DNA from: Nitrospiraceae bacterium
GTDB taxonomy: Bacteria; Nitrospirota; Nitrospiria; Nitrospirales; Nitrospiraceae
DNA length: 64,000 nt
Assembly: GCA_035573855.1 (NCBI GenBank)
Contig: DATLZU010000026.1
Location: 3,392-67,391, forward strand
Direction of reading: 5' to 3'
Of the stretch, positions 42,081 to 49,509 are shown piece by piece. Positions within the stretch are counted from its first letter, which is position 1. Every line of letters begins with the position of its first letter. The notes under the pieces were generated by a model that saw only the letters and a list, made by a program, of their open reading frames with translations, was not told the DNA's origin and ran no database searches. Made by a program: the position numbers and the translations under genes.

Positions 42081-42458
42081 TCACCGGAAGCCAGATTCCA
42101 GATCGCGGTCGAGCGTGAACACGAACACCCGTTCGCCCACCTGCGTGTCGATGTCCGTAAACAGCGCGAGCGCGTTGGCCCCGGTAATTTCACTGACCTG
42201 GTCGAACAGCCTCTCCCGTCCCTGCGCGATTAGATTCTGTCGCAGCCGTTTCACCATGTCCACACCGTCGGGCGTTTTGGCGAGTTGTCGTTCCGCCGGC
42301 GTCAGGACGCCTTTCAAGCGCACCACGACCATGTCTCGGATAATGAAGGCCCGCACGTCTTCCGGGCCGCGTCCCATGAACTCCTGCTCGAACCTGATGA
42401 CCGCGTTGCGAATAGCGGCCTCGACCTCGCCTTTGGTCCGCTTTTCCTGGTGATTCAT
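42081..42458 (-). CDS. mpsC: DUF2294 / MpsC-family protein
   Basis: 125 aa. Contains AIRNAVIRFEQEFMGRGPEDVRAFIIRDMVVVRLKGVLTPAERQLAKT. Divergent from the dabB leader. Confidence 0.75.
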   Translation of the reverse strand: MNHQEKRTKGEVEAAIRNAVIRFEQEFMGRGPEDVRAFIIRDMVVVRLKGVLTPAERQLAKTPDGVDMVKRLRQNLIAQGRERLFDQVSEITGANALALFTDIDTQVGERVFVFTLDRDLESGFR

Positions 42459-42751
42459 CGATCCTCGTCGGCCGGAACGGGCGGAGGGATTATAAAGCGT
42501 TCTGACCCGCGCAGCGACAACAATATCCGCTCAGGGCCCGGCCATGGGCCTTAAGACCTACGACCTGGGACGAAATTTCTTTTGCCGTCACGCCGGCGTC
42601 TCGGCTATAAGAGCAGCATCGCAACATGAGGATGGGGCCTCGGCGCCGATTTCCACTCGGAGCCGGCGGATCCATCCGAGACCGTTTGCCGGAATTCTTG
42701 CGGCGGTAGGGCAGCCGGCTTTCTCCGGTGAGAAGGTCGGTTGCAGTGCAA

Positions 42752-42797
42752 GCCAGCCGGACTCCCTCGCAGAGGGAACGGTTGGCTTTTGTTTTTT
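42752..42797 (+). terminator. Intrinsic-terminator-like hairpin plus U-tract inside the dabB leader (attenuator candidate)
   Basis: GCCAGCCG (42752-59) pairs with CGGTTGGC (42779-86, one G.U). Inner CCCTC/GAGGG stem with a GCA loop. Immediately followed by TTTTGTTTTTT (42787-97). No plus-strand gene ends upstream of it. Confidence 0.55.
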
Positions 42798-42856
42798 GGG
42801 GCCTTGTTGGCCGTGCGAATCAGGCGTCCTCTCCGCGAAAGGCCGTGGCGCCGGAC

Positions 42857-44557
42857 ATGTCGCTCTCGATCCTTGTCCCGCTGTTGCCGCTGGCGACAGT
42901 TTTTCTCGTCCTGATCGGCGGACCTGCGACGCAGCATGGCCGCGCCAAGCTGGGCGTGGTGCCCATGGCCATGGCCTTTCTCGGCGCCATCGCGACATTG
43001 GGCGTCGTCGCTGCGCATGGGTCGGCCGACCTGCGGTTCTATGAGCCCGCCTCCGTCGGGAGACTCGCTCTCCCGCTGGGGTTCCGCATCGACCGGCTCA
43101 GCGCGGTCATGATGGTGCTGATCGCGGGGGTGGGCGCGGTCATTTACCGCTACTCTGTCGGCTACCTGTACCAGGATCGCGACTTCCGCCGGTTTCTGGC
43201 GCTCATCGGGTTCACGACCTTTGTGCTGCTCAGCATGGTGTCAAGCGCCAATCTCCTTATGCTCTTTGTGTGCTGGCAACTGCTGAGCTACCTGCTCTAT
43301 TTGCTCGCGCACAACCTTTCGCACGCCGCCACGCTGGATGGCGCGTTCCGCACATTCACGCTTCTGCGCGTCGGCGACGCCGCCTTTCTTGCCGGGATCG
43401 TGCTCGCGCACTCGCTGTACGGCACCCTGGAGTTCGACGAACTCTTCCTGCGGGCCGCTGAAGCTCCGGGCGCCTTAGCCTTGGCACCCGGTCTCGAGCT
43501 CAGCGGCCCCACCGTGGTGACGCTGCTGCTGTTCGTCGGCGCGATGAGCAAGTCGGCGCAGTTTCCTCTTCACATCTGGCTTCCGCGTTCTCTCTACGCC
43601 CCGACGCCGGTCCATGCGCTGTTGCATGCCGGCATCATCAACGCCGGCGGCTTTCTGCTGAATCGGCTCGCCCCCCTTTACGGACTGAGCTCCACGACCC
43701 TTCACGTCGCCTTCGTGATCGGTTCGCTCACGGCAATCCTCGGCGCGGCGATGATGCTGGCGCAGAACGACATCAAGAAAACGCTCGGCTTCTCCACTAT
43801 CGGACAAATGGGCTACATGATCATGGAATGTGGTCTGGGTGCGTTTTCGCTGGCGATCTTCCACCTCATCGCGCATGGGCTCTTCAAGGCGACCGTCTTC
43901 CTCAATTGCGGCAACGTCATTCACAAGGCCCGGCATGAGCCCGTCCTGCCGCGCGTCGCCCGCCCGTCCGAGGAAACCGAATTGTCCCGGCTCGCCTGGG
44001 CGACGGGATTCGTGACGACCCTGCTGCTCCCCCTGGTGATTTTGCTGGTGGCCCACGGGATCTTGCACATCCCGATCCGTGACTCCCAGGGGGCCGTGAT
44101 TTTCCTGTTCTTCAGTTGGGTCACCTCCTCTCAAGCGATCCTGACACTCACCCGCCTGCGGGCCGTTGCCTCGTGGAAGGTGTCCGCAGCCATGCTGGCG
44201 ACGCTGCTCCTCGTCGTGTTCACCTACCTCTTCGCCGCCGAATCCTTCACCGCGTTCCTCTATCCCGATCCGACGGAATTGGCTTCGTACTTCCATGCTG
44301 CGGCGCTGCCCACTCCCCTCTTCGACGCGCTCGTCGCAACGACAACTTTGCTGATCGTCCTCGGCTGGGTGTATTTGTACGCGCGCTCTCACGGACGGAC
44401 GGTGCGGGTGCCGGCCTGGGCAGAGCGGGGCCAGGCACATCTGTACGTGTTGTTTCTGAATCGGCTCTATCTGGACGAAATCTACGCCAAGTTGGGCCTG
44501 GCCGTCGCCCGCGCGATGACTTGCCTTGATCGCCGATCGTGGGGGAGAACAGGATGA
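42857..44557 (+). CDS. dabB: NuoL/MrpA-like proton-conducting membrane subunit (DabB/MpsA-type)
   Basis: From ATG 42857: MSLSILVPLLPLATVFLVLIGG... PF00361-type core (KSAQFPLHIWLPRSLYAPTPVHALLHAGIINAGGFLL). No other complex I genes are nearby. Confidence 0.8.
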   Translation: MSLSILVPLLPLATVFLVLIGGPATQHGRAKLGVVPMAMAFLGAIATLGVVAAHGSADLRFYEPASVGRLALPLGFRIDRLSAVMMVLIAGVGAVIYRYSVGYLYQDRDFRRFLALIGFTTFVLLSMVSSANLLMLFVCWQLLSYLLYLLAHNLSHAATLDGAFRTFTLLRVGDAAFLAGIVLAHSLYGTLEFDELFLRAAEAPGALALAPGLELSGPTVVTLLLFVGAMSKSAQFPLHIWLPRSLYAPTPVHALLHAGIINAGGFLLNRLAPLYGLSSTTLHVAFVIGSLTAILGAAMMLAQNDIKKTLGFSTIGQMGYMIMECGLGAFSLAIFHLIAHGLFKATVFLNCGNVIHKARHEPVLPRVARPSEETELSRLAWATGFVTTLLLPLVILLVAHGILHIPIRDSQGAVIFLFFSWVTSSQAILTLTRLRAVASWKVSAAMLATLLLVVFTYLFAAESFTAFLYPDPTELASYFHAAALPTPLFDALVATTTLLIVLGWVYLYARSHGRTVRVPAWAERGQAHLYVLFLNRLYLDEIYAKLGLAVARAMTCLDRRSWGRTG

Positions 44558-45861
44558 CGGCCTGGGCGACCGCGTCTCTGCTGATCGTGGTGACGCCGCT
44601 CCTGGGCGCGGCGTCGGGCTTGCTCCTGTGGGGCCACCCCCGCATGCTCAAGGTTTGGGGACTGCTGGTCGCTGCGGCGAGCTTTCTCATGACGTGCTGG
44701 AGTCTGGGGTCCCTTCCTGTTGCGGCCGGCGCGTTCCCGCACCTCTTGCTCCTGCCGCTGACCGCCTTTCTCTCGCTGTTGGGGCAACCGGCTCATCGCA
44801 GCAACCAACCGGCCTGGTTGCTGAGCCTGCTCTTACTCGGGTTCGGGCTGGGCACGTTCGTCGGCGAAGGTCCTCTCTCCTTGATGTGTCTGCTGCTGGT
44901 TCTCGCCCTTGTCGGCCTCGCCCTGGCGGTCCATCATGTCTTTCCCGGACCTGCAGCTTGGTGGGGAATCGGGACGCTGGGGTGCGGCGTTCTGAGCCTC
45001 GCGCTCGCCCTCGTCGCGCCTTCTCCCGTTTCCTCCCTCGCCTTCCTGGTGGGCTGCGCCATCGCGCTGCCACTGGTACCGTTGCACCACGGCTACGTCG
45101 CCGCCCTCACGGCACTGCCCGGCAACCTGCCCGCCTTTCTCGCCCTGCTCCTCCCGACGCTCGGGTTCCACGGGCTCGAGGCAGCGCTTCCCGAGCTGCC
45201 GGATGGGCCGGCGCAGGCAGCCGCGGGGCTGGCTCTCGCGGGAACCCTCTACGGTTCGCTCAAGGCTCTGGCTCAAGCGCGTCCGGCTGTGCTCATCGCC
45301 TACGGCAATCTGGCGTTCCTCTCCATTCTGTGGTGGTATCTGGCCGAGACCCGCACGGCCCCGTCCCCGGCGGCCGTTTACTTGAGCGCAGTCGGGCTGG
45401 CGGGCAGCGGATTGCTGCTCGCGTGGTACGCTTTGTGCGCCCGCTACGGTGACGTCGATCTTCGGGCCTTGAGCGGGCTGGCGCGCCCGATGCCGCGTTT
45501 CGCCGTCGCGCTCTCGCTTCTGGCGCTCGCCGCGCTGGGGCTGCCGCCCTTCGGCGTATTCTCCGGCTTGGTCGGCATGCTGCTGGCGCCGTCCTACGCA
45601 GCGCCCGGCGGCTTGCTCGTCATCGTGATCGTCTGGCTCTGCGCATCCTGGTATTTCTTCGATCTTCCGCACCGCCTCCTGTTCGGCCCGGAGCGAGCGA
45701 CCCTGCGTCATCAGGATCTGCGGGGCCCTGAAGCGGCTTCGCTTGCCCTTGTGATCGTCATCCTGTTGATGCTGGGCGTGATGCCGTCCCGGCCGATCGA
45801 ATCCGCCCCGGCGCCGCTTCACCCAACGGCCACCGCGGAGTTTCCCGCATGGACCAAATAG
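44554..45861 (+). CDS. Second, degenerate antiporter-like (NuoM/N-like) polytopic membrane subunit
   Basis: ATG 44554 overlaps the dabB stop (ATGA) and follows SD GGGGGAG. About 435 aa, L/A/G-rich, about 12 or more hydrophobic segments. Only weak echoes of PF00361 (ALPLVPLHHGYV where canonical subunits have PxHxWLP). Confidence 0.6.
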   Translation: MTAWATASLLIVVTPLLGAASGLLLWGHPRMLKVWGLLVAAASFLMTCWSLGSLPVAAGAFPHLLLLPLTAFLSLLGQPAHRSNQPAWLLSLLLLGFGLGTFVGEGPLSLMCLLLVLALVGLALAVHHVFPGPAAWWGIGTLGCGVLSLALALVAPSPVSSLAFLVGCAIALPLVPLHHGYVAALTALPGNLPAFLALLLPTLGFHGLEAALPELPDGPAQAAAGLALAGTLYGSLKALAQARPAVLIAYGNLAFLSILWWYLAETRTAPSPAAVYLSAVGLAGSGLLLAWYALCARYGDVDLRALSGLARPMPRFAVALSLLALAALGLPPFGVFSGLVGMLLAPSYAAPGGLLVIVIVWLCASWYFFDLPHRLLFGPERATLRHQDLRGPEAASLALVIVILLMLGVMPSRPIESAPAPLHPTATAEFPAWTK

Positions 45862-48800
45862 CGCGTGACATCGACATGGAAGCCCGCCGCATGGAATTGC
45901 GCGGCATCGTCCGCGTGGCCGGCGAGGTGATCGCGCCGTATTGGCCCATGCGCACGTTTGTGCACCACAATCCGTTGCACGGCCTCGAATATCTGCCGTT
46001 CGACGACGCGGTCGAACGGGGCGCGCAGTTCCTCGGAGGAAGGGGCTATCTCGCGGGCGACCTGTATCGGCACTATTTCCGAATTGGCCGGATTCACCTC
46101 CCTCACCTGGAAGAGGCGCTACGCCCGTTGGCCCGTGACGAGCACGTGATCGTCGGCCCGTGCCGCATCGCCCATCGCGAGGTCCTGCGGGCCTGTCTCA
46201 CCCACGGGCTGTGCGCACTGCCGGACGAACCGCTCGACGCCCTGGTGGACAGCGGACCGAACGAAGACCTGGTCCGCGCCCTGGCCGACTATCTGGCTCC
46301 CGTCTTGTCGGCTCCGACCGCGCGCGAGCAGATGGCTGCGGCGGTGAAAGAGGACCGTTCGTCTCTGGGACGCTGTGTGACCCTGTCAAGTTGGTGCGAC
46401 CGCACCTGCGGCACGTCCATCGTCGCCCGGGTCAACGATGAAATGGTGAAGTGGTGTGAAGCGTTTTTGGACGAAGGCCATGCCGGCTGGGCGATGCCCG
46501 GGCGGGAACGGGGGTTCTACATCGCGTGGAAATCCCTGGCGGCGAAGGAATGGTCGCCTTGCGGCATTGCGGACAGTCGGCGGAAGATCGCGGCGCTGCC
46601 CGAGCGTCCTGAAGATGCCGTCCTGGAAAGCCTCGACCTACTCGCCATTTCCCACGAGCTTCGGCAAGACTATCTCTCGCTCCAGCTCACCGCGCTCCCT
46701 GGCTGGCCTGCGTTTATCAAGTGGCGCGAGGAACGGCCCAACTATGTGTGGCAACAGGCGTGCCCGATCAGTCTCGTGAAATTCCTGGCCGTCCGCCTCT
46801 GGTATGAGCGCGAACTGGTGCAACAAGTTTGCCGCGAAGCATTGGGGATCGCCGGGACCTTCCCCGCGGTGATGGGCTACATGGAGCAGCGCTCCGAAGC
46901 GTATTTCCTGCGCAAGGAACGGGCCACCGGGCGCTTGCCGGTTCCCTATGCCGACCTGGTCGATCGGCTGGCCCGCTGGGGCGACGGGTGGACAGAGGCG
47001 GTCGACCGCCTTCAGACGGAGATGGGCCCGCGTCGCGACCGGGCTTTCCGCTTAACCGCAGCCCGGCGCTTACTCGCGCTGGCCCAGGCGCTGGGTATCG
47101 TGCCGACGGTCCTGCTGGAGAGCGCTCCGGAGCATCTGGCCTTGCTCGCGCGCTGGATGGATGAATTCCCTGAGTCGGCTCACGGTCCCGTCTGGCTCAA
47201 GGCGTTCGAAGCCGGCTACCACGACCAGTTATTCGGCCAGCTCATGCGGACGTCCTCCCTTTCGCGCACGAGCGAGCGGGAGCGGTCCGTTCCGGTCAGA
47301 CCTCAATCGCAATCGGTCTTTTGCATCGATGTGCGGTCCGAGCCATTCCGGCGTCACTTGGAATCCACCGGCGCGAACGAGACCTACGGCTTCGCCGGGT
47401 TCTTCGCCGTCTTCATTCGCTTCCGGCCATGGGGGAAAAATCATGAGACCGAGCAGTTTCCGGTGATCATGCGGGCCAAGAACGAGGTGCGCGAGTTTCC
47501 CCGGAGCTATCATGATCACATGGTGCCCAAGCACGAATCGAGGACCAAACTGGTCCGTGCGGGACACACCCTGTTGCATGACCTCAAAGAGAACGTGGTA
47601 ACACCCTATGTCATGGTGGAATCGCTGGGCTGGTTCTACGGCTTGCCGTTATTCGGCAAGACCTTCTTTTCCGCGTGGTACCGCCGCTGGACGGCCCGGC
47701 TGCGGCGGCTCTTCGTGCCGCCCATCGCCACCACCGTGACCGTTGACAAACTGACCCCAGCGGACACCGAAGAGCTGGTCGCGGCGGAACAGCGGGCGAT
47801 CATCTGGAAGGCCTTACGCAGCGAGCTTGGCCTGCATGGCCCACGGGTTTCACCCGAACTCGTGGAAGCGCTGCGCCGACAGGCGCTGAACGGCGACGGT
47901 TCACTGACATCCCAGGTGCCGGAGCTCGTTCAGCGCACCGAGTTCTCATCGGAAGCGCTGGCAAACTTTGTGCAGATCCTGCGCCGCCGATACGACGTCA
48001 ATCCTCGGTCGGCCTCGCGGCAGCGGGAACGGATTACGCGGACGGGCTTCACGCTGGAGGAGCAGGTCTTCACGGTGGAGACGGCGCTCCGGATGATGGG
48101 CCTCATCCGCAACTTCGCGCGACTCGTCTTGTTCTGCGCGCACGGCAGCACGTCGGACAACAACCCGTTCGAGTCGGCGCTGGATTGCGGCGCCTGCGGT
48201 GGCAACGCCGGCAAGCCCAACGCCCGGGTGCTTGCCGGCATGGCTAACAAGCCGCAGGTCAGGGCGCGACTGGCCAAAAATGGAATCGAGATTCCGTCCG
48301 ACACCTACTTCCTCGCCGGCCAGATCGATACGACGACGGACGAAGTGGAGCTTTTCGACCTCGAAGACGTCCCGCTGACCCACCGGAAAGACGTGGCCCG
48401 TTTGCTGGATGATTTGCGGGAAGCCGCCCGCTTGACCAGCCAGGAGCGGTGTGCCCGCTTTCCGGATTTGGCGCGACCGCTGTCCGTTCCGCAGGCCGTG
48501 GCGCACGTGCGCGCCCGGGCCGCCGACTGGAGTCAGATCCGGCCCGAATGGGGGCTGTCCGGCAACGCAGCCTTCATCATCGGGCGCCGCGAGCTGACGA
48601 AGGGGCTCGACCTCGCCGGGCGCGTGTTCCTGCACTCGTACGACCACCGGGAAGACCCGACCGGCCGCCTTTTGGAAGTCCTGATGACGGCGCCGCAGAT
48701 CGTAGCGCAGTGGATTAACACGGAACATTATTTTTCCACCGTGGACAACGAAGTCTATGGCGCCGGGAGCAAAGTATATCATAACGTCGTGGGGCGGATC

Positions 48801-49091
48801 GGGATTATGTCCGGTCCCTGGAGCGATCTACGGCTCGGCCTGGCTAGGCAAACGGTCATGAACGGCGAGGTCCCTTTCCACGAGCCCATGCGGTTGCTGA
48901 CTGTGATCGAAGCTCCCCGAGCCATCATCGAGAAGCTGATCACGCGCCACGAGCTGTTACGCCATTTTTATCATCACGAGTGGGTGCACCTCGCCGCGCT
49001 GGACCCCTCGGACGGAGCCGTGTATCGTTACCGGCCGACCGGTGAGTGGAGTCGGGCCATCCGTTGCGATTTCCTTGCGCCGGATCGGTGA
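45849..49091 (+). CDS. dabA: DUF2309 protein (DabA/MpsB-type, beta-carbonic-anhydrase-like)
   Basis: 1080 aa. Contains [16 protein letters not shown] (TGC ATC GAT at 47322-47330), [25 protein letters not shown], and C-terminal [11 protein letters not shown]. Its start overlaps the end of the preceding gene. Confidence 0.85.
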   Translation: [1080 protein letters not shown]

Positions 49092-49167
49092 CGGCGCACA
49101 CCGGGACCCATCGCATCTTTAAAGGATGCCAGGTGCGGCCTGCACCGGACAGGAAAGGAGCCAACGC

Positions 49168-49509
49168 ATGAGCGCCCTGACGTTGCATCCCATGAAGGAG
49201 ATTCGTGTCATCGTCGCCGGAGAACACCGGGCGTTCGTCACCGACTTGTTGGACCGGGTAAACGCCACCGGATACACGATCATCGGTAATGTGTCGGGGA
49301 AAGGCCATCATGGATTCCGCGAAGCGCACTTCATGTTCAGCGAGCAGGAAAGCCTGGTGATGATCATGACCGTCGTCCCGGAAGAGAAGGTTGAGCCGAT
49401 TCTGGCCGGACTGCGCCCGTTGTTCGAACGGCACTCCGGCGTGATGTTCGTCGCGAACGTGGCCGTCAGCCGGCGGGAATATTTCGGCAAGACGGACGGC
49501 GGGAGCTGA
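49168..49509 (+). CDS. P-II-family signalling protein (CPII-like)
   Basis: ATG 49168 after SD AAAGGAG. 113 aa. Contains MKEIRVIVAGEHRAFVTDLLDRVNATGYTIIGNVSGKGHHG and the beta-alpha-beta P-II pattern. Confidence 0.65.
   Translation: MSALTLHPMKEIRVIVAGEHRAFVTDLLDRVNATGYTIIGNVSGKGHHGFREAHFMFSEQESLVMIMTVVPEEKVEPILAGLRPLFERHSGVMFVANVAVSRREYFGKTDGGS

Follow-up and report, generated by a model that had tools for sequence, protein, structure and literature searches.

We analysed the 5' leader of a predicted inorganic-carbon (Ci) uptake operon in a Nitrospiraceae bacterium, on a stretch of 64,000 nucleotides (contig DATLZU010000026.1 of assembly GCA_035573855.1; this whole stretch is the window). In the spacer between two divergent genes, mpsC and dabB, the segment 42618-42797 is best explained as the leader of a dabB-dabB2-dabA-PII operon. 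Comparison with related genomes shows that the leader belongs to a family of predicted structured RNAs of the nitrite-oxidising order Nitrospirales, with two covarying hairpin domains, purine-rich invariant internal loops, and a sequence-conserved terminator, making it a strong candidate for a new riboswitch-like regulator. The locus is laid out as follows.

42081-42458, minus strand: mpsC (DUF2294; PF10057, E = 3e-36), divergent from dabB
42459-42857: spacer between the divergent mpsC and dabB, 399 nt
42582-42587, plus strand: -35-like hexamer TTGCCG of the leader promoter, a motif match
42606-42611, plus strand: -10-like hexamer TATAAG, a motif match, 18 nt after the -35 hexamer
42618-42797, plus strand: whole leader RNA, about 180 nt from predicted start to end of U-tract
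42630-42677, plus strand: P1 domain, a long irregular hairpin GGAUGG...CCAUCC in the minimum free energy fold
42678-42701, plus strand: variable linker, a small hairpin in the window genome
42702-42711, plus strand: invariant strand GGC-G-GUAGGG
42711-42744, plus strand: P2 hairpin, 15-bp stem GCAGCCGGCUUUCUC / GAGAAGGUCGGUUGC (42711-42725 / 42730-42744), -25.4 kcal/mol
42744-42754, plus strand: invariant strand CAGUGC-AA-GCC
42750-42788, plus strand: predicted intrinsic terminator, a two-tier hairpin AAGCCAGCCGG...CGGUUGGCUU, -25.8 kcal/mol
42787-42797, plus strand: U-tract UUUUGUUUUUU, kept as GGCUUUUUU across the family
42857-44557, plus strand: dabB (NuoL-like; PF00361 and PF00662), first gene after the leader
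44539-45861, plus strand: second antiporter-like subunit, dabB2 (PF00361)
45849-49091, plus strand: dabA (DUF2309; PF10070, E = 4e-265)
49126-49509, plus strand: P-II-like gene at the operon end (PF00543)

A sequence-only reading of the window had described an attenuator-like leader before a DAB pump, made of a sigma70-like promoter, a short open reading frame (ORF), a hairpin, and a strong terminator, with no plus-strand gene upstream. These parts are all present, to within 1 nt of the positions given. The promoter, TTGCCG-N18-TATAAG, begins one nucleotide after the 42581 given for it (42582-42611), and the position of its -10 hexamer would place the transcription start near 42618; close relatives carry TTGACT-N18-GATAAG at the equivalent position. 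The terminator does lie 60 nt before the dabB ATG at 42857, a start codon kept in the genus alignment, and its GC-rich hairpin followed by a U-tract, the form expected of an intrinsic terminator, is conserved in the family. Upstream there is indeed no plus-strand gene, mpsC being on the other strand. The hairpin before the terminator, P2, is present but longer than described, with 15 bp, and two elements had been overlooked: the P1 hairpin domain, at the position of the ORF, and the invariant strands GGC-N-GUAGGG and CAGURC-AAGCC.

The leader fold is more stable than most shuffled versions (z = -2.9; 3 of 200 shuffles equally stable), and a covariance model of the family matches the window at 42612-42803 with 186 bits. 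By BLAST and by this model the leader is single-copy in the window genome, and with no other copy found by either method we rejected a dispersed repeat. A simple pattern scan lists a separate terminator-like hairpin, of 9 pairs followed by TTTTTCTCGTC, at 42880-42900, inside the first 15 codons of dabB.

Known RNA families do not account for the leader. Ten diverse member loci gave no Rfam 15 match at E <=0.05, the DUF1646/Na+, nhaA-I/Li+, crcB/fluoride, and ykkC families included. Within 42300-43000 of the window, the only Rfam 15 match at E <=10 is to snoU82P, a eukaryotic snoRNA, at 42337-42399, inside mpsC; its score of 21 bits (E = 0.006) falls well short of the gathering score of 42, and the match is almost certainly due to chance. 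Literature searches turned up no paper in which DAB, SulP, or carbonic-anhydrase genes are regulated by an RNA, nothing relevant on a bicarbonate riboswitch, and no Nitrospira riboswitch other than the guanidine classes. The sequence-only reading was aware of no cis-regulatory RNA described for DAB operons, and this holds for Rfam 15 and the searchable literature.

A covarying RNA family of the Nitrospirales

A BLAST search with the spacer recovered the leader from 10 of 60 relatives: three congeners align over about 300 nt of the spacer, and other genera and another family give short matches centred on both hairpins and the terminator. Ten such sequences share a single 5'-3' order of P1, variable linker, GGC-N-GUAGGG, P2, CAGURC-AAGCC, and terminator, the linker between P1 and GGC-N-GUAGGG differing among members in both length and sequence. 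The covariance model built from these ten aligned leaders (R1) matches 292 of 401 sampled Nitrospirales genomes, mostly with one copy per genome. Across a 301-genome sample of the phylum, all 56 clear matches fall within the Nitrospirales and two weak ones in a sister order, with none in the roughly 220 Nitrospirota genomes from other classes. When 185,579 species genomes were scanned for an exact pattern, at least 119 loci came back; among the matches listed, nearly all carry the label Nitrospirota, Nitrospirales, or Nitrospira, one is named only "uncultured bacterium," and two bear other labels, apparently mislabelled. At a locus encoding an MpsC identical to a Nitrospira tepida protein, the RNA is again present between mpsC and dabB.

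The sister-order copies (L184, 4020-4200, minus strand; L185, 555-725) are variants, with GUAGGG replaced by ACAGGC or GACCGG and UAGGCC in place of AAGCC; dabB-dabA still follows, and in one of the two loci examined (L184) mpsC is directly upstream on the same strand. Another weak model match (L180, 1341-1510; G087:C81) was set aside: it covers the terminator half only (AAGCCAGCCG...CGGCUGGCUUUUUU), follows a CBS-domain gene and precedes genes for a CDP-alcohol phosphatidyltransferase and T2SSE, and is more probably a look-alike terminator than a decayed copy. One Nitrospirales genome, G116 (genus g50), stands out by its size: it totals about 16 Mb over 20 contigs, with a listed completeness of 98% and contamination of 1%, whereas its relatives have 2-5 Mb.

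The stems of the family are maintained by compensatory change. We tested 41 modelled pairs in 103 aligned copies (99 distinct) against 500 shuffles, using five measures. Pairing was found in 90.1% of pair cells, compared with 78% when columns were shuffled and 28-46% when partners were slid by 1-3 columns; both sides of the pair had changed in 33 of the 41 pairs, and no shuffle reached any of the five observed measures (0/500). When all column pairs are scanned without bias, the highest ranks likewise go to pairs of the model, in P1, P2, and the terminator. P1 (helices 1 and 2) has both-side changes in all 9 of its modelled pairs, and in realigned 5' domains it forms a long helix in which exchanges such as CCUG/CAGG and CUCG/CGAG occur; its base is conserved, reading GAUGGKGC on the 5' strand and GGCGGA-CCAUC on the 3' strand. 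P2 has both-side changes in 12 of 13 modelled pairs. The terminator helices (5-7) are 80-98% paired, again with both-side changes, above a base, AAGCCA/UGGCUU, that is nearly invariant. G-U pairs, which would read as C-A on the opposite strand, are frequent in the stems; the transcribed strand is therefore the plus strand, that of dabB.

Outside the stems the strongest conservation, shared with the terminator base, is in GGC-N-GUAGGG and CAGURC-AAGCC. GUAGGG is present in 93 of 98 members, with GGC (or GGU) 1-2 nt upstream in nearly all. At the foot of P2 the two strands come together in a GUA:URC helix and two internal loops, one of them 2x2 GG/AG and the other N/AA. The GUA:URC pairs are formed in 99% of cells, and those of GGC:GCC could form in at least 91%. 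With the covariation of its stems, the leader has the conserved structured domain expected of a riboswitch.

That the hairpins arose by chance, or are an ordinary terminator or insulator with no regulatory role, can be regarded as refuted. Simple promoter and terminator scans do flag nothing at the leader sites, as such a reading would have it, but they miss both sites because the terminator stem has an internal loop and the -10 hexamer ends in G. Against it stand the compensatory changes across the order, a fixed gene context, a fixed promoter, and the want of any upstream plus-strand gene needing termination. Order-wide conservation with covariation is the decisive evidence that the predicted structure is more than chance.

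The same comparison bears on the mechanism first proposed for the leader, in which ribosomes translating a 27-codon leader peptide would choose between 1:2/3:4 and 2:3 pairings. The ORF exists in the window (ATG 42626 to TAG 42709, encoding MRMGPRRRFPLGAGGSIRDRLPEFLRR), it ends 1 nt before P2, and a 6-bp 2:3 pairing between the P2 3' arm and the terminator 5' arm can form, giving an apparent likeness to the trp, his, and pheA attenuators, which also have a promoter-proximal terminator. In contrast to those systems, the Nitrospirales RNA has neither a conserved leader ORF nor a conserved 2:3 helix. In just 14 of 93 members does an ATG-initiated ORF of 15 codons or more run to the equivalent stop; in others the ATG is often GUG, AUA, or AUC, because this codon sits in the covarying P1 stem, and the ORF, which lacks a Shine-Dalgarno site as had been noted, is judged from these patterns not to be a gene. 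Six bp of 2:3 pairing are available in 13 of 98 members, the window included, and 63 of 98 have just 3-4 consecutive pairs. Covariation in dabB leaders, the check that had been suggested for the alternative stems, is thus seen for P1, P2, and the terminator, whereas the 2:3 helix has only a shared CCGG core. Control by a leader peptide is largely refuted by these comparisons, and we give it hardly any weight; the wider idea of an attenuator-like cis-regulatory leader before the DAB pump gains from them, since the covarying family is tied to carbon-uptake genes.

A further pairing, between the P2 5' arm (GGCUU/GGCUC) and AAGCC/GAGCC (a 1:3 antiterminator), was tried and rejected. A few clades allow it 8-10 bp, but 74 of 98 members have 4 bp or fewer, and to form it would need to outcompete a 13-bp P2. 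Of 14 cases, 13 combine G132 with C104; we treat the 1:3 pairing as a clade feature or a phylogenetic echo.

Genes downstream of the RNA

We took a census of gene context at 120 pattern-defined copies, of which 10 lie on contigs too short to judge, leaving 110 assessable. The first same-strand gene downstream is DabB in 71 of the 120, MrpE in 22, DabA in 7, SulP (a BicA-like transporter) in 5, and a diverged DabB or unclassified protein in 5. A carbon-uptake gene stands directly downstream on the same strand in 105 of the 110 assessable copies, so that the family, like riboswitches, is placed before related genes; the median gap from RNA to start codon is about 36 nt. Upstream, mpsC is the nearest gene in 87 of 120 copies. 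A promoter-like motif precedes the RNA at a set distance in at least 94 of 117 loci; control windows never have it. About 85-92 nt separate its -10 end from GUAGGG, and each copy therefore heads its own transcript.

The units behind the RNA are varied. Pfam confirmed a set of Mrp subunits (MNHE, MrpF, PhaG/MnhG, MnhB, NuoK-like, and MrpD-like) and, at other copies, SulP with or without STAS, a CitMHS/NhaD-like partner, and Usp; in G017 the RNA precedes an LCIB-type beta-carbonic anhydrase (PF18599, E = 5e-53), at one locus. BicA-like SulP paired with Na+/H+ antiporters has been proposed as the bicarbonate uptake route of Nitrospira (PMC8115632).

DabA itself is encoded in 362 of the 401 Nitrospirales genomes, and where coordinates of both are listed the RNA is 0.1-5.4 kb upstream of a dabA on the same strand, except in G134, G095, and G268. 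In G134 the RNA comes just after dabA, a position that fits a dabA / RNA / mrp layout; in G268 the RNA and the listed dabA are on opposite strands, about 6.4 kb apart. G095 was dismissed as an opposite-strand exception, being a normal RNA-dabB-dabB-dabA operon beside a second dabA copy.

In several genomes three copies stand together in one cluster. The three-copy cluster of G056 reads CitMHS, RNA, SulP ... mpsC (minus strand), RNA, dabA, HtrA-like protease, RNA, mrpEFGB..CD, and G087 has a similar cluster (RNA-SulP, RNA-dabA, RNA-mrp). In G107 the RNA is followed by ORFs of 574 and 485 amino acids, a second RNA, and, about 5 kb further downstream, dabA; by size match to Pfam-confirmed proteins of L147, which is the same chromosome, the two ORFs would be SulP-STAS (574 amino acids) and CitMHS (485 amino acids), with dabB-type genes before dabA.

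In the Nitrospirales family of the first two genomes (L178 = G056:C1:886000-902000; L179 = G087:C14:39000-55000) dabA is not followed by dabB; next comes another leader copy and then a complete mrpEFGB..CD-like operon, with a leader-bearing SulP just upstream. This layout suggests a carbon pump of a DabA-Mrp type whose three units may be gated separately. The HtrA-like protease of G056 (L178, 8051-9583; Trypsin_2 and two PDZ domains) lies between dabA and the next leader copy.

These arrangements also bear on whether the function resides in the roughly 180-nt terminated RNA as such, a small RNA acting in trans or in a dual role, its link to the downstream genes then being one of synteny or a secondary effect. 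Its own promoter, a strong sequence-conserved terminator stem with a U-tail, and its mostly single copy per genome would all suit such an RNA. Its strand and its position before carbon-uptake genes are, however, kept through at least five gene arrangements, no conserved single-stranded seed region is evident, and in genomes with 2-4 copies each copy stands before a different uptake unit within one cluster, which is the signature of cis control. We consider a free-standing small RNA improbable.

A candidate conditional terminator and its effector

Our preferred reading, held with somewhat more confidence than doubt, is that the leader acts in cis as a conditional transcription terminator, specific to the Nitrospirales, through which an effector (ligand or protein) would control Ci acquisition genes. 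By default RNA polymerase would stop at the U-tract (about 42797) and release an RNA of about 180 nt. Binding of the effector to the conserved core would stabilise a stack of GGC:GCC on GUA:UGC at the base of P2; this stack would hold AAGCC, the 5' base of the terminator stem, so that the terminator would fail and transcription would read through into dabB. This antitermination geometry would make the leader an ON switch, and the signal would then be carbon shortage rather than bicarbonate itself. As effector we rate a small molecule or ion reporting carbon status, that is, a riboswitch, most likely.

The proposal centres on the sole family-wide pairing that overlaps the terminator, of GGC (42702-42704) with GCC (42752-42754), stacked on GUA:UGC. 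GCC 42752-42754 has two alternative partners: this upstream GGC, the candidate antiterminator, or the GGC of the terminator 3' arm. In the window the GGC:GCC helix gains 7 more pairs, worth about 11 kcal/mol over P2 alone, and buries the entire terminator 5' arm; in the tabulated flanks of other members no such extension is apparent. As the pairing is invariant, it lies beyond the reach of covariation as a test, and we infer it from the geometry. Directly beside this candidate switching helix are the invariant GG/AG and N/AA loops. Such positions are the usual binding pockets of riboswitches, and they are also where ribonucleic antiterminator (RAT) elements bind proteins. We therefore favour antitermination stabilised by a ligand, with stabilisation by a protein as the main rival.

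Several points weigh against the preferred reading. In the window the state with P2 and terminator is favoured by about 10 kcal/mol, and something must therefore stabilise the closing stack. Family-wide the candidate switching helix has only 3 invariant bp, longer antiterminators being confined to some clades. The unusual sequence conservation of the terminator base fits a protein site or a functional short RNA equally well. Both the start site and the 3' end at the U-tract are predicted positions, and no ligand can be named for the candidate aptamer. An ion signal, Na+ or pH, would also suit the gene set (Mrp, NhaD-like CitMHS, DabB), and the LCIB case that favours carbon is a single locus. 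Finally, the window genome has a second, higher-scoring dabA copy outside the window (contig C21:309155-312238, minus strand), and its second DAB operon appears to be without a leader copy by the covariance model across the whole genome.

Taken to its full extent, the reading would make the leader a riboswitch aptamer of a new class, and the first RNA dedicated to sensing Ci status; it would directly bind bicarbonate/CO2 or a metabolite or nucleotide of carbon starvation and switch on the whole uptake regulon of the Nitrospirales. We offer this as a tentative possibility. Nitrospira fix CO2 by the reductive tricarboxylic acid (TCA) cycle, and the ligand may be a compound that signals starvation of this pathway, such as 2-oxoglutarate, acetyl-CoA, phosphoenolpyruvate, adenosine monophosphate (AMP), or cyclic AMP. 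A cyclic nucleotide is a candidate because class III cyclases are often bicarbonate-responsive and an adenylate/guanylate cyclase-PilZ fusion lies directly upstream of the first leader copy in the G087 cluster (L179, 21-806). The regulon may comprise DAB, Mrp-linked DabA, BicA-like SulP, and LCIB-type carbonic anhydrase.

The main rival, which we think rather unlikely, is protein-dependent antitermination, in which a protein would bind and stabilise an extended P2, whose overlap with the terminator is 5 nt, and thereby prevent termination. P2 resembles the RAT elements of BglG, SacY, and LicT in being an imperfect hairpin with conserved internal loops and invariant loop bases, and in sharing nucleotides at its 3' base with the terminator 5' arm (here AAGCC); the conserved sequence of the terminator base would also be expected of a protein site. 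It differs from them in its much greater length and in following a second conserved domain, the large P1, for which a RAT-like model has no need. Among the annotated neighbours at examined loci there is no CAT-PRD protein, although no dedicated search was made for one.

The obvious candidate for an antitermination protein is MpsC, with the P-II-like protein or an unlinked factor as alternatives. MpsC is small and soluble, its gene is the nearest one upstream of most copies and, at one of the two sister-order loci examined, immediately precedes the RNA in the same orientation, and it has a confident predicted fold (AlphaFold model with a predicted local distance difference test score of 91; topology alpha-beta-beta-alpha-alpha-beta-beta) with no solved relative by sequence in the PDB. 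No RNA- or DNA-binding fold was detected in it, however; the best Foldseek match, to uL23-like ribosomal proteins, is uninformative (E = 0.03, template modelling score about 0.3). The RNA copies before SulP and mrp units are kilobases from any mpsC. In addition, DAB/Mps genes of distant phyla come with MpsC, for example as Staphylococcus mpsABC; the Nitrospirota genomes sampled outside the window's class lack the RNA as described above, and for other phyla the coverage consists of the matches listed in the exact-pattern scan.

Nitrite oxidation and complete ammonia oxidation in soils, oceans, and wastewater plants are dominated by Nitrospira and their relatives, and we know of no account of how these bacteria regulate carbon acquisition. 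One conserved RNA before every type of carbon-uptake unit would define a carbon-uptake regulon of the Nitrospirales for the first time, and its placement supports roles for poorly understood genes, namely Mrp-linked DabA, SulP without STAS, and MpsC. It also offers a compact handle of about 145 nt for asking which signal reports carbon limitation in an autotroph that does not use the Calvin cycle. If the RNA binds its effector directly, it would bring a new class of riboswitch ligand and a genetically encoded sensor of carbon status.

Among known riboswitches the closest parallels in arrangement are those for fluoride (crcB), Na+ (DUF1646), and Li+ (nhaA-I), in which a 5' leader carries a covarying sensor domain followed by an intrinsic terminator, with ion or anion transporters downstream; the genes controlled by the Na+ and Li+ classes include cation antiporters. 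The Nitrospirales RNA is much larger than these, with two long hairpins in about 180 nt; it is restricted to the Nitrospirales and unmatched in Rfam 15, its regulon centres on DabA/DabB, SulP, and LCIB-type carbonic anhydrase, and its ligand binding is a proposal. In what it would control, it is reminiscent of the cyanobacterial regulators CmpR, NdhR/CcmR, and SbtB, which switch on bicarbonate or CO2 uptake (BicA, NDH-1-type or DAB-type pumps) according to carbon status. Those regulators are DNA-binding or P-II-like metabolite-sensing proteins, whereas the conserved element in the Nitrospirales is an RNA within the transcript.

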